Shown in pieces: positions 15,152 through 61,206 of a DNA stretch of 64,000 nucleotides. Origin of the DNA: Acidimicrobiia bacterium (GTDB taxonomy: Bacteria; Actinomycetota; Acidimicrobiia; Spongiisociales; ZC4RG35); contig OZ244034.1 of assembly GCA_965215185.1 (NCBI GenBank), positions 640,001 to 704,000 of the forward strand, written 5' to 3'. How positions within the stretch are numbered: position 1 is the stretch's first letter; each line of letters opens with the position of its first letter. The position numbers and the translations under genes were made by a program. The notes beneath the pieces are model-generated. The model worked only from the letters and a program-made list of their open reading frames with translations. It did not search any database and was not told the origin of the DNA.

Positions 15152-16996
15152 TTGAGTTTTCTGGTGCCGGCCGCTCTGGGGCTCTCTTCCCTGGCTCTGC
15201 CTCTGATCGCCCTCTACATGCTGCGAAGCCGTCGCGAGAGGGTCGAAATTTCGAGCCTTCTGTTGTGGGAGACGGCAGCCGACCCCCTTTCTTCTTCCCG
15301 GCCCTGGCGGCGGCTGAAAATCACCCCCTTACTCTTGATCCAACTGGCGGTTCTGGCCGCTTTTGTCTTTTCTCTGGCCCGTCCATTCGGCGCCGAAGAG
15401 GCGCGGCTGGGGGCCCATACGGTCCTGGTGTTGGACGTGTCCGGTTCCATGGGGATGGCCGGTCGCTTCGAGCGAGCGAAGGAGGAGGCCCTGGGTTGGG
15501 TTGATGAGATGTCGGGCGAGCAGTTGGTGTCGGTGATAGAGGCCGGCGCCCTACCGCGGGTGGTGGTGGCTTTCTCCCGACAACCTGACGAAGTGGCCGA
15601 AGCGGTATCCGGTGTGAAGCTAACCGGCGGGGAAGCCGACTTGGCCGAGGCCGTCCGTCTGGGAAGAGGTTTGGCCACTCCTGAACATCCTTCCGATCTG
15701 GTGTTATTCACGGATGGAGGTAATGCGGCGTTGGCCTTGGAACCGGTGGCTGCCGCCCGTCACCTTCCTTTTGACGAGACCGGCGACAACTGGGCGATCG
15801 AAGCTTTCTCACTGGAGAGAGATTCGGCGGGCGTGATCAGAGGACTGGTCTCCGTGGCCAATCACAGTGCACCCGCTGAGCCGGTGACTGTGGAAATTGA
15901 GGTTGATGGACAAGTTGCCTCCCGGATGGAACTGACCCCTCCTCCCAATGGGACGGACGAGGCGTTCATTTCTGTCCCGGCCGGTCCGGGAGCGGTGGTC
16001 CGCGCCCGATTGGTCGATGTGAGAGACTCCCTTCCCATGGACGACCAGTCTTGGGCGGCTTTGGTGGTTCCGTCTGTTACCCGGGTGGAGTTAACGGGCG
16101 TGGAATCTCCCTACCTGGGGGCCTTGTTGGCCGCCATCCCCGACCTGGAGGAGACTGACGACCCTGAAACAGCCGCGGACGTGTCGGTTGTCAACCGGGG
16201 GAGCGTTCCCGAGATCAGCGGGCCCACTTGGCTGATCCGCACCGACCCTCCGCCACCGGGATTGCGATTGACCGCATTGGCCACCAATCTGGGGGTGACA
16301 TGGCAACGACCGGGTGAACCGGTGTTGGACGATGTGAGTCTGGCCGGGACGGCCGTCGCCGAAGCGCAAGTGGTGGAGACTGATCTGTGGCTGCCGGTGG
16401 TCAAATCCGGGGATGTTCCCTTGGTGCTCCTGGGCAGGGTGGACGGGCACCGGGTGGTCTACTTCACCTTCGATCTAACCCATTCCAACCTGGTTGTGCA
16501 ACTGGCCTTTCCCTTGTTGGGGGTCAGGCTCCTGGAATGGTTGGGAGGGGAGGCGAGCGGGGGGATCCACCCCGCCCCTGCCGGAGAACCTATCCCGCTT
16601 ATAGTCACCGGCGGCGGTGTCCAGGTGGGGACTCCTGATGGAGGCTCCGTGACCCTTGGTTCGGGCGCCGCATCTTTTGTCCACACTGGTGATCCGGGGG
16701 TATACCGGATCGAGTATCTCGACGAGAACGGGCAAGTCGAACGCTCTGAACTGTCCGTAAGGCACTTCGCGGCGGTCGAGTCGCCTGCCGCATCCCGCGC
16801 AGTGGAAGTCGAGCCCGGCTCTTTTCTCTCCGATGAGAGAACCATCACCATCCGGGAATGGGGACCGTGGGTGGCGGCTCTGGCGGCTCTGCTCATGCTG
16901 GTGGAATGGTGGATGGCGCTTCGCCAACCGATGCGTCCCCGCTCCTCTCCTTCGAGAGTGGTAGGGCCCTTCCGGACTGCCAGGAGGCGGGTATGA
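15152..16996 (+). CDS. BatA N-terminal + VWA domain membrane protein
   Basis: TTG start (MSFLVP..LYMLR), SSLLLW, LARP, MIDAS DVSGS, FTDG, C-terminal TM LVEWW. Confidence 0.85.
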   Translation: MSFLVPAALGLSSLALPLIALYMLRSRRERVEISSLLLWETAADPLSSSRPWRRLKITPLLLIQLAVLAAFVFSLARPFGAEEARLGAHTVLVLDVSGSMGMAGRFERAKEEALGWVDEMSGEQLVSVIEAGALPRVVVAFSRQPDEVAEAVSGVKLTGGEADLAEAVRLGRGLATPEHPSDLVLFTDGGNAALALEPVAAARHLPFDETGDNWAIEAFSLERDSAGVIRGLVSVANHSAPAEPVTVEIEVDGQVASRMELTPPPNGTDEAFISVPAGPGAVVRARLVDVRDSLPMDDQSWAALVVPSVTRVELTGVESPYLGALLAAIPDLEETDDPETAADVSVVNRGSVPEISGPTWLIRTDPPPPGLRLTALATNLGVTWQRPGEPVLDDVSLAGTAVAEAQVVETDLWLPVVKSGDVPLVLLGRVDGHRVVYFTFDLTHSNLVVQLAFPLLGVRLLEWLGGEASGGIHPAPAGEPIPLIVTGGGVQVGTPDGGSVTLGSGAASFVHTGDPGVYRIEYLDENGQVERSELSVRHFAAVESPAASRAVEVEPGSFLSDERTITIREWGPWVAALAALLMLVEWWMALRQPMRPRSSPSRVVGPFRTARRRV

Positions 16997-35616: not shown

Positions 35617-37038
35617 TCATCGGTGGGAACGGCATCTTCGCTCGAAGGGGCAGGTGCTGCACCATTCTCCCACCTGAAAGGGAGGAGACGTGGCGTCGAG
35701 GTAGTCCCACTGGGCAGCGGATTCGGCGATTCTGCCCAGTTGAAGAATTAACTTCTCCATCTGGCTTCGCTCCCATACCTTGCGATCACAGACCGGGTCT
35801 TCCCCGATGGTGGAGAGGCGGTGGATGTGAGTGGCCACGGTAGCGCATTTGAGTCGGAGAAAGGCGCCGAGCGCGTACAACTCCGCTTCGAAGGGTTGTG
35901 CCCTTGGTGACGAACCCGTTTTGTGGTCGATCACAGCTGCCGTGCCATCCCCTTCCCGTCCCACCCCGTCGGCGATGCCATACAAGACCACCGAGACAGG
36001 TTTATGACCAGCGCCGAACCGGACCGAGAATCCCAGCGGAAACTCGGTCTCTTTGATGTTGAGGGTGGATGTGCAGGGGAGGCTCAGGTGCTGTCGGTAC
36101 AGAGACTCCATTTCCAGGTCCCCTGAGAAAACCGAGGCGGGTTCATCTGACAGCAAGGCCTTGGCCATCAGTTGATGAAACCTGTTCCCCACCACCAAAC
36201 CGGGGGAAATCTCACGGGAGTAATGATCTTGATCGGGGGGGATGGAGAACCATAGCCTCCAAGCTGCTCTTCTTTCGCAATAGGCCATTTCCGGCAGACG
36301 CGACTTGGAGATCATCAGTCGGAAAGCCGAAGACTTGCGCTTCTTGGGAGGGTTGATCTTCTCCGCTCCTCGGTCGAGGCGGGGAAAGGCATCACATAGG
36401 TCGGTCACCTTGCAGGTTACGCAGTGGGGACCCGCCACGATCATTGGGTCGGAGTTCGCCATCTTTTGGTAGTCGGCCTCCAATTCGGCCAGGACCTCTC
36501 GCGCCTGGTGCCGAGGCATCTCCAGGCGGATCAACTCCCCATCCGCGGTTCTCATCTCATAGGCTTCCAACCGGTCTGGATAGCGGGGGTCGGTGACGAT
36601 GGCGGCGATCTCTTCTGCAGCTGTGGCGAATTCGGTCTCTTCGTCAATCTGCGCTGTCTTGAGTTTGAACATTTTCAACAGACCTTCGGAGCTCGTCTGT
36701 GTGAACTGAAAGGAAACCCTCAGCTTTTCTGTATCAATCGGGATGATCAGATGTGGCCAGTCGCGGTCGATTTCCCCTTGATCGAGCGAGGGCAGGAGCT
36801 TTCTGACTCTATTGACCTGGGCGGCTACGATCGCAGCTTGGACAGGATCGAACTGCTCAGGGGGCGCGGGCTTTGGTGAGTCGATCAGTTCCGCTTCCAG
36901 GGCTTCCCATGTCGCATTCCATCTCCTCAATGAAGGAGTATTCGGGTTCACTGCCGGCGATCGTTCTCCCAGATTGGCAAAGGAACCTGGACACTTTCTT
37001 TTGCTCGGTATGTCGATCAGTTCTTTGGGTGTACTCAT
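35617..37038 (-). CDS. Tandem PD-(D/E)XK (Cas4/RecB-like) protein with two Cys4 Fe-S staples
   Basis: C-domain: [31 protein letters not shown]; N-domain: KCP and [11 protein letters not shown] with degenerate catalytic motifs. Confidence 0.75.
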
Positions 37039-37109
37039 GTTGTTGGCCTCCTGCCGGGGGTACTGCCGAGGATTATCTTTCCAGCGAGACTTCTACCATC
37101 ATGGCTCAG

Positions 37110-37565
37110 ATGCGGGTAGTGGTGCAAAGGGTTTCCAGGGCGCGGGTGGTGATGGACGGCGAGACGGTCGGGGAGATCGCCGAGGGTCTCGTGGCTCTGG
37201 TCGGGATCACTCATGATGACACCGTGGCGGATGCCCGGGCGGCGGCCTCCAAGATGGCTGGCCTTCGGATATTTGCGGACTCCGAGCGAAAAATGAACCT
37301 CTCCCTGGCCGACACGGGGGGAGCGGCGTTGGTGGTGAGCCAGTTCACCTTGTACGGCGACGTTCGCAAAGGTCGTCGCCCTTCGTTCGTTGCAGCTGCG
37401 CGTCCTGAACCCGCCCAGCGCCTGGTAGACGAGGTGGTGGCCGAATTGCGGGGCCGGGGGATCAATGTAGCCACCGGAAGGTTCGGAGCGATAATGGAGG
37501 TCTCCCTGACCAACGACGGCCCGGTCACCATCCTTTTGGAAACCAGTGGAGGCCGAGTGGTCTGA
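37110..37565 (+). CDS. dtd: D-aminoacyl-tRNA deacylase
   Basis: [19 protein letters not shown]. Confidence 0.96.
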
Positions 37566-37582
37566 AGCTCTCTGGTCCTCGA

Positions 37583-40500
37583 TCAAGGCTTTCTCCCGAT
37601 CGAAGCAATGAAGGTTTTACCTGCCGGGCAGACTTGCAGAAAGTCACATTTTCGGCATTCGGTCGAGGGAGTGGGGTCCCAGCGTTCCGCGGTGATGGAG
37701 TGGGCCATGGCCTTCAATCGTTCTCGGGCTGAGGACAGCCACTTTTGGTCCACCGCCTCGGCGCTGGGGAGTTCTGCCAGGCTCCCCCCTCCCAGGTAGG
37801 CAATGGTCACCGAGAGGTTGGTCGGGGTGGGGCCAAGTTCGGGTATTTCCCGCACGGCCAGGGCATAGACCTGCATCTGAGCCAAACGGGCTGAATGGGG
37901 GTCGTCGGCTGGTGGCTGCCCGGACTTGAAGTCAACGATTTCCCAGGTGTCGGAGGCATTTTGGTACACGGCATCAATGCGGCCTCGCACCAAGAAGTTG
38001 TTTTCCAGGTGGAGCGTGAATGCCTTTTCGAGCCACTGGATCTTCATGTCCGAGAAGCGGGACTTGCGGAACACCCCGAATGGGTCAGCGCCGGCTACAG
38101 AGTCCACCGGGCGGTCGTCACCGGTGAGTTCGGGGACTTCGGTGTCCGGTTCCAGCAGAGGGACTTTGCCTTGGTGGTATAGCTCGATCTGGCGGTGGAT
38201 CCGAGTCCCTCGACGGGTGACGTAGGAATAGCGGCGAGGAAGAGGCTCCACCTTTGTCCAAAAGTACTTCTTGGGGCATTGGGCGTAACTCACCAGGTCC
38301 GTTGCCGAAGCGGTGACCAGTTCCGGGCCAGTTTGGGGTGTTGGGTCGGATAGCCGGAACAGCAGGCCCGAGAATTCCTCAAGAGCGGATTGGTACTCTT
38401 CTTCGACTCCCTCCAGGCGGGCCATTTCGGCTATCGAGTCTGGATCCTCCAAGGCGAGGCGTAAACCCTCGGGCCATCCTCTTTCTTTGAAGAGAGGATC
38501 GGGTGCGGAGGCTGCTTGGGTAGAAGTGACGAAGCTGTTAGGGCGAGACCCCGCTGGGTATAGCTGTTCCAAAGCCTCATCCACATTGGCGGGTGGCTCT
38601 TTCTGGGTGGCCAGCCAGACGGCCTTGAAAAAATCGCTTTTCTGGGGGGGTCTGGCTTGTTGGGTGGGTTCCGGATAGCCGTACCAGTGTGCGCCGGAAA
38701 ACACCAATTCTTCTCTTGCGCGAGTGGCAGCCACGTAGGCGACTCGCCATTCTTGGGATCGGTGAGCGGTTTGGGCTCTACTGTAGTTTTGCGCCAAGCT
38801 GGTTTGGATCTTAAGGGCGTTCATGGTGGCCCTGATCTCATTATGAGGGGATGGGTCGATCTGCCATTCCCAGGGGAGGGTCTCGGCTTTCCTATAAGGA
38901 TCGTCGTATCCGCCCACGGCTAGGGAGGGAAAGTTATGCTGGTAGAGCGCCGGGATAAACACCACCGGCCACTCTAGGCCCTTGGCTTTGTGGACGGTCA
39001 GCAGCGGCACCGCGTCCTCATCGGATAGCCGCGCGGCATCTACCTGTTCGGAGGGTTCCTCCAGTAGAGCATCCAGGTAGTTGAGGAATTCCTCCGTAGT
39101 GGATGGTCCTTCCAGCGGTGACCAACTCTCCGCCAGGTCAAGGAAACGGTAAAGGTTGAGATGGGCGGAGAGACGTGTGTTGTCGGACATGGACTCCACG
39201 TCCACCCAGGCCCGGGTCCTCTTGAGGATCAGCCGACACGAATCTCCCGCAGTTCTGCCCTGACAGACACGCAACAGTTGGCGATATTCGTCGTGGAAGC
39301 GACGAAAGGGCTCCTCCAACGATTCGGGCAACTGACTCCAGAACTTGGGATTCTCCAATCCGTCAAGCAGGGCTTGGGGGCGATCATCGCGGTCCCGGTA
39401 GGCAAAGCGGGTCAAATGCCGGATATCTCCCAGCCCCAGTCGGTAGCGACTTCCGCCCAGCAGGCGGGCGGCTGCTTCCCGGTCGTCGAATCGGCCGATC
39501 ACTCTCAGCCAGGAGTGGATCTCCACAACTTCGGGCACGGTGAGCAATCCCCCTATGTTGGCCACTTCCGCCGGGATGTCGTGGGCCTTCAGCTGCCTGT
39601 ACACCCCCATTATGTCCTTGGTTTTGCGAAAGAGCACCGCCATGTCCCGCCAGTTTCTGCCCTCTTTGTGGCGTTCGATCAGCTGTTCGGCGATCCACAC
39701 CGCCTCGTCTATGAATGTGTTGTGCCACTGGGCTGTCACTTTGGAACGGGGCGCGGTGTGAAGAGCTTGAAGCCCGGGCGTATGCGATCCTATTTCCGCC
39801 TTTATTCGGTTGGCAAACCGGACAATCTCCTCTCCGGAGCGGCGGTTCAAGGTGAGGGGGAGGGTTGCGGCGGGCACTCCTTCCTTGTTGGGAAAGTGGG
39901 TGGGGAAGTCTTGAAAATTCTCCAGTGAGGCTCCCCGCCATTCATAGAGGGTTTGATCGGAGTCGCCCACCACTGTCAGAGGAAAGCCATTGCCGAACAG
40001 CTCTTGGAGGATTGCCCGCTGCGCGACGTTGGTGTCTTGGTATTCATCGGCCACCACCGCCCGATAGCGTCCTATGATCCGCCGGGCGATGTGAGGCTGT
40101 GTGGTGATGATCCGATGGGCCTGGGTGATCAGGTCTCCGAAGTCCACCACCCCCAGTTGGCGTTTGAGAGCCTGGTAGTGGCGGGCGGCCTCCACCATGC
40201 CCCGGCGCTTGGAGAAAGTGGCTGCCAGTTTTTGGTAGTTCTCGAAGTCTTTCTTGCGCCGAAAATCTGCTCGTACAAGTTCGGGGATTGCGGCGGACAG
40301 CATCGCCTCTTCGATCTCATCGGGGTCGCGCAGGTGATCAGCCAGGGAAGAGCAGAAACGGATGATCACGCCCGGCAGATAGAAGAAGTTGGTGTTGTCA
40401 AGCCCGGGAAGGGAGTGCTCTCTGACCACCTGTTTTACTAGCTGGCGGGTCTGCGCCGGACCGATGATGGACAGATTCCGCTCGATTTCCACTAGCGCCC

Positions 40501-40807
40501 CGAACTCGGTGACGATTTGGGAGCAAAAGCCGTGATAGGTGTTGACTTGGACTTCCCGGAGAGGCTCAGTGTGGTTGAAGAGCACCTGCTGGATTCGATG
40601 CGCGAGTTCTTGGGCCGCCTTGTTGGTGAAGGTGAGCCCCAGAATCTGCTCCGCAGGTATGCCCTTTTCCACCAGCTTGGCGATCCGATAGGAGACAGTG
40701 GTGGTTTTACCCGTACCGGCCCCCGCCGACACTCGGAGAGGCTGGAGCGGATAGTCCACCACCTCCTGTTGTTCGGAGGAAAGCTTGATTGGGGGAGCAG
40801 CGTTCAC
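37583..40807 (-). CDS. adnB: AdnB-like UvrD helicase with C-terminal RecB-type nuclease
   Basis: AGAGTGKT, LTFTNKAA, DEYQDT, TVHKAKGLEW, YVAATRA, GRIDAV, VDFKSG; GTGA coupling to the upstream gene. Confidence 0.85.
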   Translation of the reverse strand: MNAAPPIKLSSEQQEVVDYPLQPLRVSAGAGTGKTTTVSYRIAKLVEKGIPAEQILGLTFTNKAAQELAHRIQQVLFNHTEPLREVQVNTYHGFCSQIVTEFGALVEIERNLSIIGPAQTRQLVKQVVREHSLPGLDNTNFFYLPGVIIRFCSSLADHLRDPDEIEEAMLSAAIPELVRADFRRKKDFENYQKLAATFSKRRGMVEAARHYQALKRQLGVVDFGDLITQAHRIITTQPHIARRIIGRYRAVVADEYQDTNVAQRAILQELFGNGFPLTVVGDSDQTLYEWRGASLENFQDFPTHFPNKEGVPAATLPLTLNRRSGEEIVRFANRIKAEIGSHTPGLQALHTAPRSKVTAQWHNTFIDEAVWIAEQLIERHKEGRNWRDMAVLFRKTKDIMGVYRQLKAHDIPAEVANIGGLLTVPEVVEIHSWLRVIGRFDDREAAARLLGGSRYRLGLGDIRHLTRFAYRDRDDRPQALLDGLENPKFWSQLPESLEEPFRRFHDEYRQLLRVCQGRTAGDSCRLILKRTRAWVDVESMSDNTRLSAHLNLYRFLDLAESWSPLEGPSTTEEFLNYLDALLEEPSEQVDAARLSDEDAVPLLTVHKAKGLEWPVVFIPALYQHNFPSLAVGGYDDPYRKAETLPWEWQIDPSPHNEIRATMNALKIQTSLAQNYSRAQTAHRSQEWRVAYVAATRAREELVFSGAHWYGYPEPTQQARPPQKSDFFKAVWLATQKEPPANVDEALEQLYPAGSRPNSFVTSTQAASAPDPLFKERGWPEGLRLALEDPDSIAEMARLEGVEEEYQSALEEFSGLLFRLSDPTPQTGPELVTASATDLVSYAQCPKKYFWTKVEPLPRRYSYVTRRGTRIHRQIELYHQGKVPLLEPDTEVPELTGDDRPVDSVAGADPFGVFRKSRFSDMKIQWLEKAFTLHLENNFLVRGRIDAVYQNASDTWEIVDFKSGQPPADDPHSARLAQMQVYALAVREIPELGPTPTNLSVTIAYLGGGSLAELPSAEAVDQKWLSSARERLKAMAHSITAERWDPTPSTECRKCDFLQVCPAGKTFIASIGRKP

Positions 40808-43800
40808 GATGTGAAGGCCCCCTGTCCCTCCGGGCAGGCCGGACATAATGTGCGCACCTGGCATTTCCGGCACTCCTTGGAGGGTCGGGGTAGCCACGGT
40901 TGAGGATCAGCTTTCTCCGAAATGATGGCTTGACCGATCTCGCCCAGAAGCTTGATCACCTCTTCCAGCCTGACCGGGTCGAAAGAAAGCTTCCAGGACG
41001 GCTTTTCACAAAGCGGATACCAAAACTCGGCGGCGGAGGCGTTGGCGCCGGGGGTGAGTCGAGATTTCGCCCATAGGTAGAAGCCCAGTTGCAATGCGAT
41101 TCTGGCGTCCTTTGCGGTCATTGGATTCTTGGAAGTCTTGTAATCGACGATGCGCAGGGTTCCGTCTCCCATCCGGTCTATACGATCAATTCGGCCCTTC
41201 CAGGAGATCCCGTCCAGTTCGGTGGCGACTTTCCCTTCGAAACTGATGGCTTGCCCGCTCTCTTTTTCCCACCGTTGCGCCAATTGGTCGAGGAGTTTTA
41301 TTCCTCGTTCCCGCCAGGCTTGGTTGAGAACGGGGGTACCGAAATCGTAGGTGGCGAGTTGGTTGTCGAGCTCTTTCATTGCGAAATGCAGGTTCAGTCC
41401 GCTTTCGGCCCGTTCGAAGGACCTCTGTCCGCTTCTTTGGAGAACATGGTGGATCAGTTGCCCGAATTTGGCAGTGGGTTTCTCGTCAACCGCCCTGATT
41501 TGCAACCGATGTTCCAGGGCGTAACGCCGGGGACAGATCTGGTAGGCCTCGGCCTGCGACGCCGACATGATATGACCCGGATCAATCAGTCCGAGGTCGG
41601 ATCCGGGGGATAGCATTCCCGCGAAACTGCGGGGATCCCACAGGTCCGTGCGGGGAGGGTGGGCGAGCACCATGGAGGCCGCCAAGCGGCGGGGGCGGCT
41701 CTGGTGGATGTCCTGTTGGGTACGTCTCAGGTATCCCTCTGTCTCGAGCCGGCCAAGGGGAGAGGAGTTGGGTTTTGGGGAGGGTGGTCTCAGTTTCTGG
41801 CCGGTGAAGTTGGCTAGGCGGAGCATGAATCGGCTGACCGCACTGCGCATTTCTTTGAGATCTGGGGAGGTGGCGGTCCACACCACCCGGAGGCGTGCGC
41901 GGGTCATGGCCACATAGGCGAGATTCAATTCCTCCTCCAGCCGGCTCTCAAGGATCTGGAGGTATTTCACATCCGGGCGGGAAAGGAATTGTCCTTCCAG
42001 AAGGGATGTGAAGGGACGGGTGTCGGGGAACGCTCCCTCCGTGGCGCTGGCGATGAACACCACCTCGAATTGCTGGCCCTTGGCCTGATGGATGGTGCTG
42101 ATTGTCACCCCACTCTCATCCGGGCTGTAAGGCTTGAGCAGAGGCGAGGCTTCAAGATCTCCTCCCAGGGTTAGCTTCCGGTAATCGAGCAGAGAAGTGA
42201 GGGGAGAACGTTCCGCCAGCCTGCCCAGAGTTTGGGCAAATGAGAACAGGGTGGATCGGTAACTGGCGGGCTGATCTGATTCGACGAGTCGATGAAGCTG
42301 GGGAAGGCGGCTCCAGAACTTCCAGAATCCGGTGGTGGCTGGAGGGGTTTTCGCCCAAGATGGTTCATTGAGGAGGTTGGAGAGCGCCTTGGCATTGGGC
42401 AAGTTCTCTGCCAGCACCTGCGCCCAATGCTGACCGGACCCGCGGCGAATGACCTCCAGTTCCCTGGCCCGACCCTGGGTGAGCGAGAACGAGGGTCCCA
42501 GCAGTGCGCCCTTCATTATTCGGTCGACGGCCTCCTTCTCCGATCTGGAGAGATGTGGGTCGGTGTCCACCGCCGCCACCCAGGCCAGATCCAGCACCAG
42601 ACGCACCGCCGGATGGTCTATCAGCTGGGCGTTCGGTCGGGCGTGGGGTATATCCTCCCGGTCCAGTGCTCGGGATAGGGCCGCCAGTGGACGCAAGGCG
42701 CGGGTGAGCACTGCGATCTTGGAGTAGGGGAGTTGTTCGGTGAGGTGAAGGCGTTTGATCTCCGAGGCGATCCAGTCGTTTTCGGCCATCTCCTGGTTGA
42801 AGACATAGATCTCGACCTTGCCCGCGTGGGGGGCGGGGGCGGGAAGAGTTTGATGGTCGATACCCACTAGCGCCCCGGCCGATGACAACACCTCCTCAGG
42901 AACCCTGAAGCTGGTGTTGAGGATGACAGTGTTGGTCGGCGAATGCGCCACGGCGTCGAAAGTCTCGGGAAAGGCGCTCACCGAGGCACGCTCAGCGCCC
43001 AAGAATGAAAAGGAGGTCTGCTGGGGATCGGCAACCGCCGTCAGGTGGCAGCCGGCTCCCACCAGTCTCTTTAGGATCTCCACCTGCACCACGGTGGCTT
43101 CCTGGAATTCGTCAACCAACACGTATGGGAATCGAGCCACGGTGTTTCTGACTATCTCGGGTATGCCCAATGCACGGTTGGCCCGAAGCAGAAGACCCGT
43201 GTAGTCGATTTTGTTCTCTTTTTCCAGCCTGCGTAGGTAATGCCGATAGAACCCGGGTAGGGCCGCCCACGCCGGTCTTTTCTTAGCTCGATCGGCCAGT
43301 TTATCCGGGCTGATGCGCTGCTCACCACACCTCAGCATGAAGTCGGCGAGTTCTTCGGCGAGGGTGTGGGTGTGGAGCAGGCGGCGATAAAAAAGTGGCC
43401 AGTCCTCGGGTGGTTCATCGGCCAGGACCTCTTTGACGAAGTGGATCTGTTCGGGAGCGGTTAGAAGCATGGGAGGCTGGATAGTCCCGAAGAGTTCCTG
43501 GCAGTTCTCTTCGACCAACGTCCGGGCGAAGGCATAGAAGGTCCCGACGGACAATTCCCCAAAAGAGCGCTGAGCCGCTGTGGTTATCCGACCTCGCAGA
43601 TCAGAGGCGGTTTCCCGAGAGAACGACAATCCCAAGACTGTGTCGGATGAAGCAGTTTCGGAGTTGATCAAATGTGCGGCGCGGCAGGCTAAGAGTTCGG
43701 TCTTGCCCGTGCCCGGCCCCCCAATGACCAGTTGGGTTCCCTCTATCCGGGTGACCAGATCGTCCCATTTCCCAGGAGAGATCCTTTCACCCCGGAGCGA

Positions 43801-43821
43801 TCCGACCGAAGGACGCCTCAC
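40804..43821 (-). CDS. adnA: AdnA-like UvrD helicase with C-terminal Fe-S RecB-type nuclease
   Basis: GGPGTGKT, VDEFQE, HQAKGQQF, YVAMTRA, GRIDRID, VDYKT, CRKCQVRTLC. Confidence 0.85.
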   Translation of the reverse strand: MRRPSVGSLRGERISPGKWDDLVTRIEGTQLVIGGPGTGKTELLACRAAHLINSETASSDTVLGLSFSRETASDLRGRITTAAQRSFGELSVGTFYAFARTLVEENCQELFGTIQPPMLLTAPEQIHFVKEVLADEPPEDWPLFYRRLLHTHTLAEELADFMLRCGEQRISPDKLADRAKKRPAWAALPGFYRHYLRRLEKENKIDYTGLLLRANRALGIPEIVRNTVARFPYVLVDEFQEATVVQVEILKRLVGAGCHLTAVADPQQTSFSFLGAERASVSAFPETFDAVAHSPTNTVILNTSFRVPEEVLSSAGALVGIDHQTLPAPAPHAGKVEIYVFNQEMAENDWIASEIKRLHLTEQLPYSKIAVLTRALRPLAALSRALDREDIPHARPNAQLIDHPAVRLVLDLAWVAAVDTDPHLSRSEKEAVDRIMKGALLGPSFSLTQGRARELEVIRRGSGQHWAQVLAENLPNAKALSNLLNEPSWAKTPPATTGFWKFWSRLPQLHRLVESDQPASYRSTLFSFAQTLGRLAERSPLTSLLDYRKLTLGGDLEASPLLKPYSPDESGVTISTIHQAKGQQFEVVFIASATEGAFPDTRPFTSLLEGQFLSRPDVKYLQILESRLEEELNLAYVAMTRARLRVVWTATSPDLKEMRSAVSRFMLRLANFTGQKLRPPSPKPNSSPLGRLETEGYLRRTQQDIHQSRPRRLAASMVLAHPPRTDLWDPRSFAGMLSPGSDLGLIDPGHIMSASQAEAYQICPRRYALEHRLQIRAVDEKPTAKFGQLIHHVLQRSGQRSFERAESGLNLHFAMKELDNQLATYDFGTPVLNQAWRERGIKLLDQLAQRWEKESGQAISFEGKVATELDGISWKGRIDRIDRMGDGTLRIVDYKTSKNPMTAKDARIALQLGFYLWAKSRLTPGANASAAEFWYPLCEKPSWKLSFDPVRLEEVIKLLGEIGQAIISEKADPQPWLPRPSKECRKCQVRTLCPACPEGQGAFTS

Positions 43822-43851
43822 CGGTGCGGCTCCCCCAAACTAGTGAAGGGG

Positions 43852-44016
43852 TCAGGCCGCGACATGCAGTTTGATGGGCGGGCAGATAGTGCACGCACTG
43901 GTGGGTTGTGTCTCAACCAGGTCCACGGTGACGCCGGCTTCGGCCAGCCACTCCATTACCTCATGGCAGTCGGCCGGAGTGGTTTCGACGGTATGGCTGA
44001 TCAGTTGCTTTTCCAT
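43852..44016 (-). CDS. Small (54 aa) Cys-containing protein upstream of adnA
   Basis: TAGGCT -10 box 7 nt before ATG; CxxC; fills the gap co-directionally. Confidence 0.55.
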   Translation of the reverse strand: MEKQLISHTVETTPADCHEVMEWLAEAGVTVDLVETQPTSACTICPPIKLHVAA

Positions 44017-44047
44017 AGGAATAAGCCTATGAGAGGGGTGTGACACT

Positions 44048-45040
44048 TTACCCCGAAGGCGGGGAAAGGGGGATAGGTTGGGGGTTCGAAGAGGCGGGGG
44101 AGGACGACTGGGATGAGGTTTGATCCTCCCAGGCCGGGCATATCGGCTGATAGGAGCACCAGTTGCACAATCGCGATTTTCTGGTCGGGAACGTGTCGGT
44201 CATGATCGCCCGGTCGATTGCGTACCACAGGGCTTGGAGTTGCTGCTTCATTGCTCTCAACCCCAGCTGCGAGATCGGCTGGCTATAGGCGACCGAATTT
44301 CCCAGGTAGAGCAGGCGGACTTGGGCGGGTGTTCTTCCCAGGTCCTCTTGAATCATCAGGGCATAGATTTTCAGGGCGAAAAAGCTCGAATCGGCATAGT
44401 TCAGCGGGGGCGCCTTGCCCGTTTTGTAGTCGGTGATCACCAGTTCCCCGTCAGCAGCGGCGTCCAGTCGATCAATGATCCCGCGAATCTCCAGCTTCTT
44501 GTCAGAGTCGTCCGACTTGGCGTCCAGGTCGATCAGCAGGGTGACAAACTTCTCCCTATCCAGCGGTTCTATGTGGCGGGGATCCTCGATCTGAAAGTAG
44601 TGCTCAGCCACCTTCCGGCCCGCCTGGTAGTAGGCATCCCGGCCATCGGAATCTTCGGCGAACAATTCCCGGTAGTCGTCGCTTCGGAGGGTTTCATCCC
44701 AAGCGACTTCGTAAAGTTCCAACAGGCGCTCGGGGTGGCGCTCTGAGGAGGGGACTTCAAAAAGCCTCTCCAAGGCGAGGTGGATGGCGGTGCCCCGGGC
44801 CTGAGCGGGTGTGGGGACATCGCGGATTCTCTCGACATGGCGGAATTTGTAGAGCCTCGGGCAGGTTTTGAAATCAGAAGCCCGGCTGGGGGAGAGGTTG
44901 GTCAGCCCGACCGGTTCCTCAACAGAAGACGCAGAGTCCTGGGTAGGGGTAAACAGGACTCCGGACTTCTCTGCACCGGGATCGAGGACAGGCTGCTTCA
45001 ACAAGGCGGGTTTAGGGTGTTCCACTCCAATGGCGAGCAT
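44048..45040 (-). CDS. RecB-family PD-(D/E)XK exonuclease with Fe-S staple (start uncertain)
   Basis: LSPSRASDFKTCPR, GTAIH, GIIDRLD, TDYKTG, LCNWCSYQPIC. Confidence 0.9.
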   Translation of the reverse strand: MLAIGVEHPKPALLKQPVLDPGAEKSGVLFTPTQDSASSVEEPVGLTNLSPSRASDFKTCPRLYKFRHVERIRDVPTPAQARGTAIHLALERLFEVPSSERHPERLLELYEVAWDETLRSDDYRELFAEDSDGRDAYYQAGRKVAEHYFQIEDPRHIEPLDREKFVTLLIDLDAKSDDSDKKLEIRGIIDRLDAAADGELVITDYKTGKAPPLNYADSSFFALKIYALMIQEDLGRTPAQVRLLYLGNSVAYSQPISQLGLRAMKQQLQALWYAIDRAIMTDTFPTRKSRLCNWCSYQPICPAWEDQTSSQSSSPASSNPQPIPLSPPSG

Positions 45041-45247
45041 ACGGGAATGCCGGCCCCTTTTCTGGTCTCTTGCCCCTGAGCAACCGTTGTGCGCGAAAAA
45101 CACACGTAACCTGTGGAAAGCAGATGGCGGGGTAAACATGCAACTGAGGATCTGTCCGCTGCGGGGCCCCGCGAGGTAGGGTAAACCCTTCAACGTTGCT
45201 AGCCTGAAACCCCGAACCCCTCTGTTGGAAAATCATTAGAAAGCCCT

Positions 45248-50996: not shown

Positions 50997-51710
50997 TCAA
51001 CCGGCAACTATTACCAGGCGATTCCCTGAGGGCTGGACGGGACGACTGTTGGGCCCGCCGCTCAATTCGAGGAGGCTGTCAACCTGCTCGCGGCAGATGG
51101 TGGTTGGTTGGCGCATCACATACCATCCAACCGGTTCATCGCACGGGGGAGTCGTTGTCGACCCGTCGTATCGGTAATAGCCGCTTCCGCTGGGCACGAA
51201 GCTATAAGCGTTGAGGGTGGAGCCGTCAACGACCGCGCCCTCATCTCTGGGAGCTACATCGAGGACCGCCTGTACCAGGGGGTTGTGTGCTCCCAGGTGG
51301 AACAACTGGGCCACCACCACATGGCCGGCGGCATCTGAATGGACCAGATGCAGTTCCGCCGCGAAGCGTCGTCCCTGTATCAAATGCTCGGACGGGGAAT
51401 GAATATGCGCCGTTTCCAGCTGGTAGGTCTGATGGCCGACGCTTAGCGTGTTTCCTGGTTGATAGTCGACATGCACGAACCTGCCGTCGTTGCGGACGGC
51501 TTTGGCGGCCACGCGGTAGGAGAACGAAATGGACGCCGGCCTTCCCTCCAGATATCGCCGTATGTCGATAGGGGATTGTTGTTTGCCGTCGGCGCAGGTT
51601 CGGTATTCCTCTGATATCAAGGCCCAATTCTGTGGCGCTCCGGGCCCCTCGTATCCCCACTGCACGATCTGATCCTTACAACCACGGGCCCCGTCCACCG
51701 ACGATCTCAT
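50997..51710 (-). CDS. cah: Alpha-class carbonic anhydrase
   Basis: WGYEG..PQNW, QQSPIDI, HIHSPSEH, ELHLVH, GSTTTPPC, NSRPVQP. Confidence 0.92.
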   Translation of the reverse strand: MRSSVDGARGCKDQIVQWGYEGPGAPQNWALISEEYRTCADGKQQSPIDIRRYLEGRPASISFSYRVAAKAVRNDGRFVHVDYQPGNTLSVGHQTYQLETAHIHSPSEHLIQGRRFAAELHLVHSDAAGHVVVAQLFHLGAHNPLVQAVLDVAPRDEGAVVDGSTLNAYSFVPSGSGYYRYDGSTTTPPCDEPVGWYVMRQPTTICREQVDSLLELSGGPNSRPVQPSGNRLVIVAG

Positions 51711-53073: not shown

Positions 53074-53585
53074 CTCCCAAGCTGTGGCTGATCGGGATGA
53101 TGAGTTCCGGGAAGACCAAGGTGGGCCGGATAATCTCCTATCGAAGCGGCCTGCCGTTTGTGGATGTGGATGATGAGATCGTGGAACGAGCCGGGATGAC
53201 CATCCCCCAGATCTTCGCCGAGCAGGGAGAGCCGGCTTTCCGAGCCCTGGAATCCGAAGAGGTGGCCCGTATCGCCCAAGGCCGAGAGAGGATGATCGTG
53301 GCCACCGGCGGGGGAGTGATCCTGGATGCAAACAGTCGCCGCCTGATGCGCGACAGTGGACTGGTGGTGTGGCTGAAGCCCTCTCTGGTCTCGCTGATTG
53401 CCCGGGGGAAGACCCGCAACCGTCCCCTGTTGCAGGGTTATGCCGACCTGGGGGCCCGCTACACCCAAATCTGGGAGGCTCGCAAACACCTCTATGAAGA
53501 AGCCGCCCACCTGAGTATGGAAATGGATGGGAAGACTCGCGAACTGGTTGCTGAGGAAGTGTGGAGGCTGTGGAAAGCATCCTGA
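53070..53585 (+). CDS. aroK: Shikimate kinase (probable CTG start; alternative ATG at 53037)
   Basis: GMMSSGKT, GEPAFRALE, ATGGG, NRPLL. Confidence 0.93.
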   Translation: MTPKLWLIGMMSSGKTKVGRIISYRSGLPFVDVDDEIVERAGMTIPQIFAEQGEPAFRALESEEVARIAQGRERMIVATGGGVILDANSRRLMRDSGLVVWLKPSLVSLIARGKTRNRPLLQGYADLGARYTQIWEARKHLYEEAAHLSMEMDGKTRELVAEEVWRLWKAS

Positions 53586-54619
53586 TCGGGGATCGGTGCG
53601 AGATACTCGTCTCCGATGGCTTGCCTGCTCCGCTTCTTCCTTCCCGTCCGGGCCATCCTCCCGCCCGGGTGGTGGTGCTCACCCAGCCAGGAGCGGTGAC
53701 CGAGGTGGCCAGGGGGGTGGCTGCCCGCATCGCACAAGAAGCCCGGGAGGGGGCGTTGTCGGTGCACACATTGGAGATACCAGACCGTGACGAGGCCAAG
53801 ACGCTGGGGGTGGCCGAAGAGATCTACCGGGAACTCGACCGGCTCAGGGTGGGCAGATACGACACCATTGTGGGGGTGGGAGGGGGAGCCGCCACCGATC
53901 TGGCCGGATTTGTGGCCTCCACCTGGTTGCGGGGAGTGGAGGCGGTGTATGTGCCTACCACCTTGTTGGGAGCGGTGGACGCCTCTATCGGAGGCAAGAC
54001 GGGTGTAAACCGAGAGGGGAAGAACCAGGTCGGTACGTTCCGTCATCCCCGTCGGGTGGCGATCAGCATCAATGTCTTGAGGTCACTTCCGCGCCCGCTA
54101 CTCATCGAGGGGATGGCCGAGGCCCTGAAAGCCGGTTTGATCGGAGACCCCGGCCTGGCGGAGATTCTGGAGGAGCACGGGCTGTCCGCCCCTCTGGCGG
54201 AGGTGGTGCCCCGAGCGATTCGGGTGAAAGCGCAAGTCACGGCCGCCGACTTTTTCGAGACGGGACGACGGGCCATTCTCAACTACGGGCACACCATCGG
54301 CCACGCAATCGAATCGGCTACCGGCATTCCTCATGGTCACGCGGTGGCGGTGGGAATGGTGGCGGCTGGTGCGATTTCGGAGCAAAAGATGGGTTTTGCT
54401 CAACGGCTTCGGCAGCGGGAGATGATCGCCTCCTTGGGGTTGCCGCTTCGTTCTCCGAAGGTGGCTCGGGCTGTGATCATGCAACTGCTTGGGAAGGACA
54501 AGAAACGTGGGAGAGGGCCCATCCCGAAGATGGTGCTACTGGAGGACTTCGGGAAACCGGTGGTGGTTGACGTCTCCTCGGACGATCTGGAGATGGGGTT
54601 GGCAGCGGTGGGGTTGTGA
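53561..54619 (+). CDS. aroB: 3-dehydroquinate synthase
   Basis: GGGAATDLAGF, PTTLL..VDASIGGKT, LNYGHT.GH. Confidence 0.95.
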   Translation: MEAVESILIGDRCEILVSDGLPAPLLPSRPGHPPARVVVLTQPGAVTEVARGVAARIAQEAREGALSVHTLEIPDRDEAKTLGVAEEIYRELDRLRVGRYDTIVGVGGGAATDLAGFVASTWLRGVEAVYVPTTLLGAVDASIGGKTGVNREGKNQVGTFRHPRRVAISINVLRSLPRPLLIEGMAEALKAGLIGDPGLAEILEEHGLSAPLAEVVPRAIRVKAQVTAADFFETGRRAILNYGHTIGHAIESATGIPHGHAVAVGMVAAGAISEQKMGFAQRLRQREMIASLGLPLRSPKVARAVIMQLLGKDKKRGRGPIPKMVLLEDFGKPVVVDVSSDDLEMGLAAVGL

Positions 54620-54664
54620 TCCTCTACACTTTGACCTGACCTCTCCCCCACTAAAAGCGAACCC

Positions 54665-55222
54665 ATGATCTCCACCAACGATGTACGTCCCGGCATGGCG
54701 CTGGAACTTCCCGACGGGGTGTTTTCCATTGTCACTTACCAGCACGTCAAACCGGGCAAGGGGAAGGCGTTCGTAAGGATGAAGATCAAGAACGCCGAGA
54801 CGGGGCAAGTGCTGGACCGCACCTTCCGGGCGGGCGAAGATGTGCCCCGGGCCATCATCTCCCGACGTGACCACCAGTATCTGTACCGGGACGATCTGGG
54901 TTTTCATTTCATGAACATGGAGGACTATTCCCAGTTCGCCCTTTCCTCCGATGAGATTGGTGACGATGCTGGATATCTGGTGGATGGAATGAGTTTGACC
55001 ATCGCCTTCCACAAAGACCGCCCCATCGGCTTGGAACTTCCTACCTCGGTGGAGATGGAAGTTACCTACGCTGAGCCGGGGGTGAAGGGCGACCGGGTGT
55101 CAGGGGCCACCAAGGACGTCATAGTCGAGACTGGAATCAGTATCAAGACGCCGCTCTTTGTGGGGCAGGGTGACCGCATCAGGGTCGACACTCGCACCGG
55201 CGCATACCTTACCAGAGTGTGA
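54665..55222 (+). CDS. efp: Elongation factor P
   Basis: HVKPGKG, PGVKGD, VDTRTGAY. Confidence 0.97.
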   Translation: MISTNDVRPGMALELPDGVFSIVTYQHVKPGKGKAFVRMKIKNAETGQVLDRTFRAGEDVPRAIISRRDHQYLYRDDLGFHFMNMEDYSQFALSSDEIGDDAGYLVDGMSLTIAFHKDRPIGLELPTSVEMEVTYAEPGVKGDRVSGATKDVIVETGISIKTPLFVGQGDRIRVDTRTGAYLTRV

Positions 55223-56856
55223 ATATCTGGTCTGAGTGGGAGGAGACTCCCGGTCTTTTTGAAGGTCCCTCCGATGATCCGCGTTATCAGGCGCTGGGAA
55301 TCCTCTATGAGATAGCGGTCTCCGACGGATTGGATTTGGATGACGCCCTGGAGGGAAAGCTCCCCAAGGCCGAGTTGATAGTGCGGGGAGTCACCGTGCA
55401 GACAGAGCGCCTCGACTCGGTTATCGAGAAAGCCTCCCAAGGCTGGAAGGCCGGGCGGATGCCCGCGGTTGATCTGGCCATATTGCGGATGGCCGTGTTC
55501 GAGTTGCGGCATCACAGCCGTACCCCGGTGGCGGTGATCATCTCCGAGGCGGTGAGGATCGCCGGGGAGTTCTCCACCGAGCACAGCGGCCGGTTTGTGA
55601 ACGGGGTGCTGGCCACCATCGCCGGGTGGGTGCGACCCGACTTCTCGGCCGCCGGGACGGCGGAGGGAAGCGGACCCGTGGGGACGAGAATGTGGCGGCG
55701 GGCCAAGCCTGGTCTGCTGGTCACCGCCGACGGGGAGGTATTCGCCGGGCGATCGGTGGGAGCCTCGGGGACAACGGTGGGGGAGGTGGTGTTCAACACC
55801 GCCATGAGCGGTTACCAGGAGGTGTTTACCGATCCTTCGTACGCCGGCCAGATCGTGGTGATGACCGCCCCTCATATCGGCAACTACGGGGTCACCGATG
55901 ACGACTCCCAAGCAGGGCGGCCCGCAGCAGCGGGAGTGGTGATGAGATCCTATTCCCAGCGCTATTCAAATTGGCGGGCGGAAGGCAACCTGTCGGACTT
56001 TTTGACCGCCAACGGACTGGTGGCTGTGACCGGGATCGACACCCGTCGGCTGACCCGCCACATCCGCGAGCAGGGGGCGATGCCCGCTGCCATGGGGGAA
56101 GGGGCCTCCGCGGCGGAACTGGCGGCGATGGCCGCGGCCGCCCCGGTGATGGTGGGACAGGATCTCGCCTCGACGGTCTCCACCGGATCTTCCTACCATG
56201 TCTCGCCCCAAACACAGCTTCGAGGGAAGGTTGTCGCCATCGACCTGGGGATAAAACGTGATATCTTGGACCAGCTTGCTCAGCGTGGATTGGAAGTGGA
56301 GGTGATGCCTCTCGACGTCTCCGCTTCGCAGGTGCTGGACGCCCGGCCCGACGGCGTGTTCCTCTCCAACGGCCCCGGGGATCCCGAGCCGCTTCATACG
56401 GCCGTGACCACTCTTCGTGGCATCTTGGGGAAGGTTCCGGTGTTCGGGATCTGCCTGGGACAGCAGGTGATGGGATTGGCGTTGGGTGCCAAGACCTACA
56501 AGCTTCCTTTCGGACATCACGGAGGAAACCATCCGGTGCGCAGGCTCTCTGATGGAAGGGTGGAGATCACTTCCCAGAATCATGGGTTTTCGGTTGATCT
56601 TTGGTCGCTTACTGACCGCTGCGCCCCCTCCCGTGAGGGTCTGGTGACTCCCCAACTGCTGCCCGCTTCGGTTGAGTCGGACTTCGGAGCGATTGCCCCC
56701 ACCCACCAGAACCTCAACGATGGCACTCTGGAGGGACTGGAGTGTCGGGATATTCCCGCTTTCTCGGTGCAATATCATCCCGAGGCTGCTCCGGGACCTC
56801 GCGATGCTGTGGGGCTCTTCGACGACTTTATGCGTCTGATGGACCGCGGGGTGTAG
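55219..56856 (+). CDS. nusB-carA: NusB-CarA fusion (antitermination factor + carbamoyl-phosphate synthase small subunit)
   Basis: NusB motifs RMPAVDLAILR, ISEAV, FVNGVL, then a linker, then CarA motifs GEVVFNT.MSGYQE, SNGPGDP, GICLG, QYHPE with no intervening stop. Confidence 0.88.
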   Translation: MNIWSEWEETPGLFEGPSDDPRYQALGILYEIAVSDGLDLDDALEGKLPKAELIVRGVTVQTERLDSVIEKASQGWKAGRMPAVDLAILRMAVFELRHHSRTPVAVIISEAVRIAGEFSTEHSGRFVNGVLATIAGWVRPDFSAAGTAEGSGPVGTRMWRRAKPGLLVTADGEVFAGRSVGASGTTVGEVVFNTAMSGYQEVFTDPSYAGQIVVMTAPHIGNYGVTDDDSQAGRPAAAGVVMRSYSQRYSNWRAEGNLSDFLTANGLVAVTGIDTRRLTRHIREQGAMPAAMGEGASAAELAAMAAAAPVMVGQDLASTVSTGSSYHVSPQTQLRGKVVAIDLGIKRDILDQLAQRGLEVEVMPLDVSASQVLDARPDGVFLSNGPGDPEPLHTAVTTLRGILGKVPVFGICLGQQVMGLALGAKTYKLPFGHHGGNHPVRRLSDGRVEITSQNHGFSVDLWSLTDRCAPSREGLVTPQLLPASVESDFGAIAPTHQNLNDGTLEGLECRDIPAFSVQYHPEAAPGPRDAVGLFDDFMRLMDRGV

Positions 56857-56859
56857 TGA

Positions 56860-60086
<3,227 letters not shown>

Positions 60087-60090
<4 letters not shown>

Positions 60091-60764
60091 ATTTGGAGGG
60101 CGAAAAGCTCTTGGTCCGATTGGCGGTCACCGATGCCGAAGAGGCGGTCAGAGTTGCCTCGAATATGAAGGAGAGAGTGGGCGGGCTGGTAGTCGGAGTT
60201 GGTTTGTTGTTGGACCGGGGTCCGATACTGGTAGGTGCGCTCTGTGCGTTGGGTAAACCGGTGCTGGTGGATTTGGGCATCATTGATGCCCCGGAGGTGG
60301 TGGCCAGGGCGGTGGCGCGGATGGGAAAGCTAGGTGCCCGGTGGGTGAGTGTCTCCGGCTTGGTGGGCCGAACCGCGGTGCGGGCGGCAGTGGCGGAGGC
60401 CAATGAATATCCGAACACTTCGGTGGTGGTTTCCGCCACCCTCTCGGGTTGGGCCGGGGAGGATGAGCTAAAAGGGGTGGGGATCGGCGACACTCCGGGC
60501 CGGCAGGTCTCTCGGATGACCAGACTGGCCGCCGCGTCCGGCACCGGAGGGATTGTCTTTCCGGCCCGGGAGTTGGGGGTGGTCGCCCAGGTTGCGGATT
60601 CTTCCAGATTGGGAAACTTCGAGGGCCTTTCTCGAATGGCGGACACTACGTCCGGCCTATCCTCTTCGGAACACATGACTGAGATAACCGACATCATTGG
60701 GAAAGGCGCCGACTGGGTGATAGTTGCCCAGGAAGCAATCGGGAGGGCAGGTGAGGGGAAGTGA
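60087..60764 (+). CDS. pyrF: OMP decarboxylase-like protein lacking catalytic residues
   Basis: Syntenic position and PyrF-like pattern, but the DxKxxD motif reads DLGIID and FKVG reads LVVG. Confidence 0.75.
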
Positions 60765-60897
60765 ATTCCAGGCCTGGAAGGATGATTTGGCTGAGGAGAA
60801 GGAGCAATATGTTTTTGGTTTCCAACAGTTGCTTGGTATGGTATTCGACCTGTTTGGGAGCCACCCAACCGACCTGCGATTGGACATAAGGAGCATT

Positions 60898-61206
60898 ATG
60901 AAGCCACCACCTCTCACCCCCGAACAGCGTAGACAAGCACTGGTTAAAGCCGCAGCCGTTCGCAAAGGCAGGGCAGAAATCAAGGCAGATTTGAGCGATC
61001 GTCGCCTGAGCATGGTTGAACTGTTGGAGCGGACGGACGATCCGCTGGTAGGTGGAATGAAAGTTGCCGCCGCGCTGTCGGCGCTCCCGGGTCTTGGGAA
61101 GAAACGCACCAGCATGCTCATGGAGAGGGTTGGCATTCTCGAAAACCGGCGTCTTCGCGGTCTGGGAGAACGCCAGCGCGAAGCCCTCATCAGAGAATTG
61201 TCCTGA
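60898..61206 (+). CDS. mihF: Actinobacterial integration host factor
   Basis: PPLTPEQRRQAL.KAA, LPGLGK, RRLRGLG.RQ; AAGGAG RBS. Confidence 0.93.
   Translation: MKPPPLTPEQRRQALVKAAAVRKGRAEIKADLSDRRLSMVELLERTDDPLVGGMKVAAALSALPGLGKKRTSMLMERVGILENRRLRGLGERQREALIRELS

Follow-up and report, generated by a model that had tools for sequence, protein, structure and literature searches.

NusB fused in frame to the carbamoyl-phosphate synthase glutaminase in Acidimicrobiia: a probable remnant of pyrimidine-operon decay

The DNA considered here, referred to as the window, is a stretch of 64,000 nucleotides from an Acidimicrobiia bacterium (GenBank assembly GCA_965215185.1, contig OZ244034.1, positions 640,001 to 704,000 of the forward strand), and coordinates are those of the window unless another locus is named. 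Between the gene for elongation factor P (efp) and that for the large subunit of carbamoyl-phosphate synthase (CPS; carB) it holds one uninterrupted open reading frame (ORF) that runs from the antitermination factor NusB straight into CarA, the glutaminase subunit of CPS. The features of this segment are the following:

54665 to 55222, plus strand: efp, elongation factor P (NCBIfam TIGR00038, 224 bits; cut-off 185.8)
55219 to 56856, plus strand: nusB::carA fusion ORF, 545 residues, GTG start and TAG stop, with known in-frame homologues
55219 to 55269, plus strand: acidic N-terminal extension (residues 1-17), predicted by AlphaFold2 (AF2) to be disordered, fast-evolving
55270 to 55641, plus strand: NusB domain (residues 18-141) with seven predicted helices, from Pfam, NCBIfam, profile alignment and AF2
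55642 to 55713, plus strand: linker of about 24 residues (142-165), of low AF2 confidence and loosely constrained (substitution ratios below)
55687 to 55707, plus strand: basic run R157-K163 within the linker, from the sequence
55690 to 55692, plus strand: ATG of Met158 in the linker, lineage-specific, from the sequence
55714 to 56856, plus strand: CarA, the CPS glutaminase subunit (residues 166-545 and the stop codon), by TIGR01368
56452 to 56454, 56776 to 56778 and 56782 to 56784, plus strand: codons of the CarA triad residues Cys412, His520 and Glu522
56860 to 60090, plus strand: carB, the CPS large subunit (NF003671, 1520 bits; TIGR01369, 1376 bits)
60078 to 60764, plus strand: pyrF-like gene, 228 residues, a degenerate orotidine monophosphate (OMP) decarboxylase homologue overlapping the end of carB

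Judged from its sequence, the encoded product is a two-module protein: NusB, a flexible linker, and then CarA. Pfam recognizes NusB (PF01029) at residues 50-135 (E 4e-24), CPSase_sm_chain (PF00988) at residues 167-291 and GATase (PF00117) at residues 340-539. Both halves also exceed the cut-offs of the corresponding NCBIfam equivalogs, with 444.4 bits for CarA (TIGR01368; cut-off 307.35) over residues 166-542, a match that spans both CarA domains, and 96.4 bits for NusB (TIGR01951; cut-off 88.35). The sequence-only reading of this DNA had described a 545-residue ORF with a NusB domain and a complete CarA, and the ORF together with the Pfam and NCBIfam matches bears this out; every string that it quoted is present, namely FVNGVLATIAGWVR (residues 126-139), EGPSDDPRY, GICLG (with Cys412) and HPE (with His520 and Glu522), as is the ATG at 55690-55692. 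The GTG start of the fusion shares four nucleotides with the TGA stop of efp (GTGTGA; overlap GTGA), while carB begins 3 nucleotides past the fusion's stop codon, so that the CarB partner is encoded alongside.

Relatives were collected in two ways. The protein search, using residues 1-200, listed 120 proteins from several sources, and 46 of these (P0002-P0047; 463-589 residues) carry NusB plus CPSase_sm_chain, with identities ranging from 99% to 33%; some come from contigs of 2-3 Mb, and where the sources name the fused proteins, they do so only as 'carbamoyl-phosphate synthase small subunit'. Alignment of the NusB part against one genome per species gave 599 stretches, 532 of them encoding a relative, from which the best 80 loci were retained (L numbers). 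Eight of these 80 loci, all of Acidimicrobiia, hold a single in-frame nusB::carA ORF: L001-L006 (544-547 residues), L042 (551 residues) and L070 (639 residues), Pfam confirming the fused domains in L003, L006, L042 and L070. All 8 continue past the NusB domain without a stop codon. The architecture described by the earlier reading in this one genome is present, in short, in at least 46 protein clusters and 8 loci of related genomes, which fall into three lineages:

lineage A: the window, P0002-P0036 and L001-L006
lineage B: L042, P0038-P0042 and P0044-P0047
lineage C: L070, P0037 and P0043

It is extremely improbable that an error in assembly or sequencing, for instance an indel or a lost stop codon where the two parts meet, produced the fusion: the same in-frame design appears in 46 clusters from several sources and in 8 independent genome records, chromosome-level assemblies included, the divergence of the fused sequences tracks the phylogeny, and the searches turned up nothing in support of an artefact. 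No split version is found among the 35 other lineage-A clusters listed, and the stand-alone CarA proteins among the matches listed (74 examined) are at most 70.5% identical to the CarA domain of the window. The closest stand-alone NusB in an exhaustive search with the NusB part has 54% identity, and the two top matches are fragments of fused genes. No paper on a NusB-CarA fusion was found in the literature covered, subscription journals lying outside that coverage.

The NusB module aligns over nearly its full length with NusB proteins of solved structure. Its profile covers residues 9-139 of 1eyv and residues 6-138 of the E. coli chain, the top match being 1eyv_A of M. tuberculosis (E 9e-33). 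The AF2 model, computed from a 24-sequence alignment, has a mean predicted local distance difference test score (pLDDT) of 74 and a predicted template modelling score (pTM) of 0.62; it comprises the CarA part plus seven helices within residues 21-138 (block-mean pLDDT 66-89), as expected of the all-helical NusB fold, and its pLDDT drops below 50 at residues 1-13, 15-17 and 141-160. Two independent domains on a flexible tether is the picture that the model offers. The FVNGVL motif and Asp85 are retained and belong to 29 columns that are invariant across fused and unfused NusB. PMC3177189 gives F122 and E81 of A. aeolicus NusB as residues of the boxA U8 / NusE pocket; F126 and D85 of the window are the pocket residues here, invariant in fused and unfused members, their correspondence to A. 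aeolicus being by motif and not by residue-numbered alignment. With stand-alone NusB (1EYV; E. coli 3D3B/1EY1) the module thus shares the all-helical domain, FVNGVL and the acidic residue of the U8 pocket, but its C-terminus is covalently joined to a 380-residue enzyme and its N-terminus bears a 17-residue acidic extension.

In that N-terminal region the window also lacks the Arg-rich segment of NusB, SDDPR being aligned with RRRAR of the E. coli protein. According to PMC3177189, the boxA contacts of A. aeolicus NusB start at the N-terminus, with the Arg-rich segment touching the 5' part of the RNA, and residues A4-R8 of E. coli NusB turn ordered upon boxA binding; with SDDPR in place of RRRAR, recognition of the 5' part of boxA could be affected. 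The acidic N-terminus (EGPSDDPRY) had been presented in the sequence-only reading as a replacement of the Arg-rich one typical of NusB. It is indeed there, but not as a consequence of the fusion: because the nearest unfused NusB proteins (L007, L009, L012-L015 and L018) likewise have a non-basic start (EEPRE, EEPRD or EPRD), and because the fused lineages B and C retain an Arg-rich one (RHRARERA or SRPARERV), it predates the fusion of lineage A and is independent of fusion.

NusB-type domains in front of larger enzymes are also known from RsmB/Sun, the 16S rRNA m5C967 methyltransferase. There, however, the partner is an RNA-modifying enzyme, which makes functional sense, whereas the partner in the window is a metabolic amidotransferase; the RsmB model NF011494 matches the NusB of the window weakly (35.9 bits, residues 53-135), and the latter, being over the TIGR01951 cut-off, is unlike the RsmB domain an orthologue of true NusB. 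Further NusB fusions exist in the databases: P0048 (310 residues) is NusB plus NUDIX according to Pfam, and P0133 (336 residues) and P0240 (551 residues) each carry an unrelated C-terminal extension behind NusB. NusB appears to be prone to C-terminal fusions.

Selection on the parts of the gene was estimated as the ratio of nonsynonymous to synonymous substitution (dN/dS) by the Nei-Gojobori method, in 7 pairs of lineage A and, for comparison, in 4 pairs of unfused nusB genes. The ratio lies at 0.03-0.23 for the NusB domain and at 0.07-0.17 for CarA, against 0.34-1.5 for the linker and, in 6 of the 7 pairs, 0.39-1.9 for the first 17 residues, where the seventh pair has no synonymous difference. 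Unfused nusB genes give 0.08-0.26, and since these ranges are comparable the fused NusB domain is constrained like a free-standing NusB. Purifying selection acts on NusB as well as on CarA, with the linker in near-free evolution, and both modules look functional.

These values bear directly on the idea that the NusB part is a relic, a non-working domain kept as a mere translated leader that brings ribosomes from efp to carA. The idea would suit the missing Arg-rich segment, which contacts boxA according to PMC3177189, and the restriction of the Pfam match to profile positions 47-132. We nevertheless hold it to be very unlikely, as the dN/dS of the domain is that of unfused nusB genes, the 29 invariant columns include FVNGVL and Asp85, the unfused sister group also does without the Arg-rich segment while the fused lineages B and C retain it, and the score is over the TIGR01951 cut-off.

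In the CarA module, C412, H520 and E522, which we take to be the Cys-His-Glu catalytic triad of class I amidotransferases, are unchanged in all 24 fused proteins aligned. The best Foldseek matches of the AF2 model are E. coli CPS small subunits (1a9x_B), with a template modelling score of 0.80 on the target and 44-45% identity, which attests likeness of fold only and neither glutaminase activity nor assembly with CarB. The CarA of the window resembles E. coli CarA (1A9X/1JDB chain B) in fold, triad, TIGR01368 match and adjoining carB; unlike it, it follows about 165 residues of NusB and linker, and in most fused members CarA has no start codon of its own. Glutaminase domains of this type also lie within longer polypeptides in CAD/URA2 and CPS1, where consecutive enzymes of the same pathway follow on the C-terminal side; CPS1 is itself among the Foldseek matches (5dou). 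As in those proteins, the CarA-type glutaminase tolerates a longer polypeptide, but unlike them, the window joins an unrelated transcription factor to the glutaminase N-terminus.

The linker was surveyed in 34 clusters of lineage A, two further clusters having failed the motif match. Its basic run, mostly RRRRR or SRRR, stands just ahead of the CarA core in all 34. A methionine at most 12 residues before the CarA core is found in three of them (P0001, P0002 and P0032, the last being L001), the others having arginine. As rows with the methionine are nested within the tree of lineage A and every deep branch carries arginine, Met158 is a late, derived substitution; on the same grounds its codon was rejected as a candidate for the retained ancestral start of carA. 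The ATG at 55690, which the sequence-only reading had proposed as a start that could still yield free CarA, is thus real as the codon of Met158 but fails as a conserved route to free CarA, although this species may still obtain a certain amount of free CarA from it. Just ahead of the inferred start of carA, L009 and L014 have a purine-rich stretch whose translation in frame with carA is RRR, with an unconvincing DNA alignment; the basic run may, as speculation, go back to a former carA leader that came to be translated. The linker of the lineage-C fusion gene (L070 9854-11773) is about 80 residues long, repetitive and rich in Pro, Gly, Ala and Ser, as against the 24 residues of the window.

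Could one ORF yield two proteins, a separate NusB and a separate CarA, through internal initiation near the linker or through cleavage? The in-frame ATG at 55690 has a purine-rich sequence upstream, and proteases could reach the linker, given its predicted disorder. We think this improbable all the same: the methionine is confined to 3 of 34 clusters and is derived, in-frame start codons (ATG, GTG or TTG) are missing from that place in L002-L006, and internal initiation would give no free NusB, as no stop follows NusB in the 8 fused loci.

The nearest unfused relatives (L007, L009, L012-L018 and L048), whose CarA is 61-69% and whose NusB is 42-52% identical to that of the window, reveal what once separated the two genes. 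Their nusB encodes 120-139 residues and ends at a stop codon of its own, after which come three ORFs (about 180, 300 and 420 residues), carA and carB; in L007, L012 and L013 Pfam assigns the three ORFs to Pribosyltran (pyrR), OTCace (pyrB) and amidohydrolase/DHOase (pyrC). Further downstream, pyrD (DHO_dh) lies between carB and pyrF in L012 (17443-18450), L013 (17555-18472), L014 (17588-18502) and L071 (17952-18908). At the upstream end, efp overlaps the fusion by the identical 4 nucleotides in the fused loci L001-L006, and efp overlaps nusB likewise in unfused relatives. Gene order was classified in the window and the 80 loci by the next recognizable gene after nusB:

pyrR: 52 of 81 loci
carA, all fused: 9 of 81 loci
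pyrF: 3 of 81 loci
pyrC: 2 of 81 loci
nothing recognized: 15 of 81 loci, 5 of them at contig ends

The statement of the sequence-only reading that the fusion lies where pyrR-pyrB-pyrC normally lie agrees with pyrR following nusB in 52 of the 81 loci, and its proposal that these genes were removed from this very site agrees with their presence there in the unfused L007, L012 and L013. On such comparative grounds the ancestral operon efp-nusB-pyrR-pyrB-pyrC-carA-carB-pyrD-pyrF can be regarded as established. In some loci nusB directly precedes another pyrimidine gene and keeps its stop codon: pyrF in L052 (1249-2218), L056 (10001-10749) and L059 (1365-1736), and pyrC in L010 (10013-11654) and L019 (6212-7862).

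By tblastn, pyrR, pyrB, pyrC and pyrD were absent from the 64-kb window and from each of the 8 fused loci, and Pfam found no pyrR, pyrB, pyrC or pyrD family in 29 ORFs from window positions 1-38 kb. Neither pyrD nor pyrF was found at the L070 locus, where gmk follows carB, and pyrF was not found at the lineage-B locus L042. The latter has genes for a formate-tetrahydrofolate ligase and a LytR_C protein (15170-18836, minus strand) between carB and mIHF-like/gmk, at the usual site of pyrD and pyrF. Neither rpsJ nor an rRNA leader lies in the window, where Rfam recognized no family. Over window positions 53400-61200 there were no promoter-like sites, and 7 terminator-like ones against 5.6 expected by chance.

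The fusion arose more than once. In a tree of concatenated Efp and CarB (34 rows, 1282 columns, LG+G4, quick search), lineage A, with a support of 100 in the Shimodaira-Hasegawa-like approximate likelihood ratio test (SH-aLRT), is nested in the unfused L007/L012-L018, lineages B and C lie in another, mostly unfused clade, and the fused state requires 3 changes. An approximately unbiased (AU) test rejected a single clade of the 8 fused rows (log-likelihood difference, delta lnL, 501; p 7e-50). Under LG+C20 (22 rows) the fused L070 is sister to the unfused L071 with 100/100 support, and a single origin is compatible with none of the 200 bootstrap trees. A grouping of L042 with L070 was rejected too, with p 0.0018 in the first tree set and p 0.00036 in the second; this pairing had been named the 'distant fused group' before the trees were made, and the test was chosen after the first tree. 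The CarA-domain tree has the same pattern, with strongly supported branches that force at least 2 changes, and horizontal spread of one fused gene was rejected, as the CarA tree follows the Efp+CarB tree. There were at least two origins of the fusion, and three most parsimoniously. Un-fusing would need the re-insertion of pyrRBC.

Beside carB, the window retains one trace of pyrimidine synthesis in its pyrF-like gene. The protein scores under all three NCBIfam PyrF cut-offs (59.8 against 92.3), whereas L012 PyrF exceeds two of them. In alignments with PyrF of unfused loci and OMP decarboxylases of known structure, the pyrF-like protein is without the xKxG lysine, the DxKxxD lysine, the PGIRP loop and the GR(P) arginine; L002-L006 share with the window the replacement of both lysines and the arginine. 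In Mt-OMPDC the catalytic tetrad is K42, D70, K72 and D75', and R203 binds phosphate, according to PMC12395307. By these substitutions the pyrF-like protein is predicted to be catalytically dead. The gene is still conserved in L002-L006 (dN/dS 0.13-0.32), and its product may have been kept as a pseudo-enzyme that took on another role. Together with the missing pyr genes, the locus suggests that de novo pyrimidine synthesis has ceased in the fused lineages and that carAB is kept for another use, most simply arginine. In the literature covered, again outside subscription journals, nothing relevant on pyrimidine biosynthesis or auxotrophy in Acidimicrobiia was found.

We consider it probable that the fusion is a tolerated, stable two-module protein left behind by decay of the pyr operon, and that such proteins have arisen repeatedly in Acidimicrobiia. 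In the ancestor, pyrR-pyrB-pyrC separated nusB from carA. Lineage A would then have lost pyrR, pyrB, pyrC and pyrD from the operon, with pyrF left as a catalytically dead homologue, and the nusB frame would have come to read on into carA. The carA gene of unfused relatives starts before pyrC has ended, the sequence just before the inferred carA start lying inside pyrC, and therefore removal of pyrRBC threatens the translation of carA. Joined to the frame of nusB, a gene coupled in its turn to efp, carA may have gained a replacement for the start signals lost with the 3' end of pyrC. Each module would keep its own job, NusB with S10 and boxA RNA and the CarA glutaminase with CarB, the carbamoyl phosphate probably serving arginine synthesis. 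The fusion would persist as something harmless and hard to undo, not through coupled functions, and the same outcome was reached separately by one or, more probably, two further lineages of Acidimicrobiia that have likewise lost the pyr genes from this locus.

The following points weigh against this account of decay and tolerance or limit it. The nusB-carA adjacencies are fused in 9 of 9 cases (about 3 events) and the nusB-pyrF and nusB-pyrC adjacencies in 0 of 5, a difference that is not obviously due to chance. All 34 lineage-A clusters surveyed retain the basic run while the remaining linker drifts, which is unexplained. That the pathway was lost, and its genes not relocated, we infer solely from the locus and the dead pyrF-like gene. 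Searches with the PyrB proteins of L007 and L071 are uninformative on this point: in neither search was a match attributed to a fused genome among the 120 matches listed, which extend down to about 67-70% identity. The L070 genome, for its part, seems to be absent from the protein collection (best match 86%).

The first two of these points can also be counted in favour of an adaptive coupling, in which NusB tethered to CPS ties antitermination or RNA control to the supply of carbamoyl phosphate, arginine or nucleotides, or, in another version, the NusB module takes over from the lost PyrR as regulator of the efp-carAB message. So can the two or three independent origins, the lack of a split form among the 35 other lineage-A clusters listed, and the distance of the fused CarA from the stand-alone CarA proteins listed. 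On the other side, the linker is near-neutral save for the basic run, differs widely between lineages (about 24 residues here, about 80 of low complexity in L070) and is of low confidence in the AF2 model; three events are too few for a pattern; fusions are inherently hard to reverse, so that persistence alone is no sign of selection; and neither a regulatory RNA nor any other Rfam family was found in the 64-kb window. An adaptive coupling consequently seems unlikely to us. The sequence-only reading had left the choice between a tolerated scar and a new link from boxA antitermination to carbamoyl-phosphate supply; the scar fits best, and nothing found supports the functional link.

A stronger form of the argument, which we rate as still somewhat less likely, is that convergent selection favoured the fusion in Acidimicrobiia without pyrimidine synthesis, tying the cell's only NusB to CPS, with the basic run of the linker as part of an RNA-binding or docking surface. 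If this were true, how much CPS is present, or in which state, would influence assembly of the rRNA antitermination complex or an RNA-binding control of efp-carAB that stands in for PyrR, and both the repeated origins and the fusion of every nusB-carA adjacency would be products of that selection.

Under the preferred explanation of operon decay, the locus would be a clean natural case in which the pyrimidine genes are gone and the flanking genes have merged, more than once. These small-genome Acidimicrobiia may depend on external pyrimidines, considering the dead pyrF-like gene and the pyrB, pyrC and pyrD missing at the locus. Annotation of the fused proteins as CarA only makes nusB seem absent from these genomes and causes the fusion to be overlooked. 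If the cell has no NusB other than the fused one, then either NusB functions in spite of its tether to a large enzyme or the cell can do without that function, which bears on the construction of the rrn antitermination complex.

Two other parts of the window deserve mention. On the minus strand at 50997-51710, inside an otherwise co-directional aro/efp row of the other strand, lies a gene for a eukaryotic-type (alpha) carbonic anhydrase (PF00194, 114 bits). Two genes at 35617-45193, also on the minus strand, encode proteins of 1104 and 1005 residues that combine a UvrD helicase with a PD-(D/E)XK nuclease; they look like a pair of the AdnAB type and are flanked by two more PD-(D/E)XK nuclease genes.

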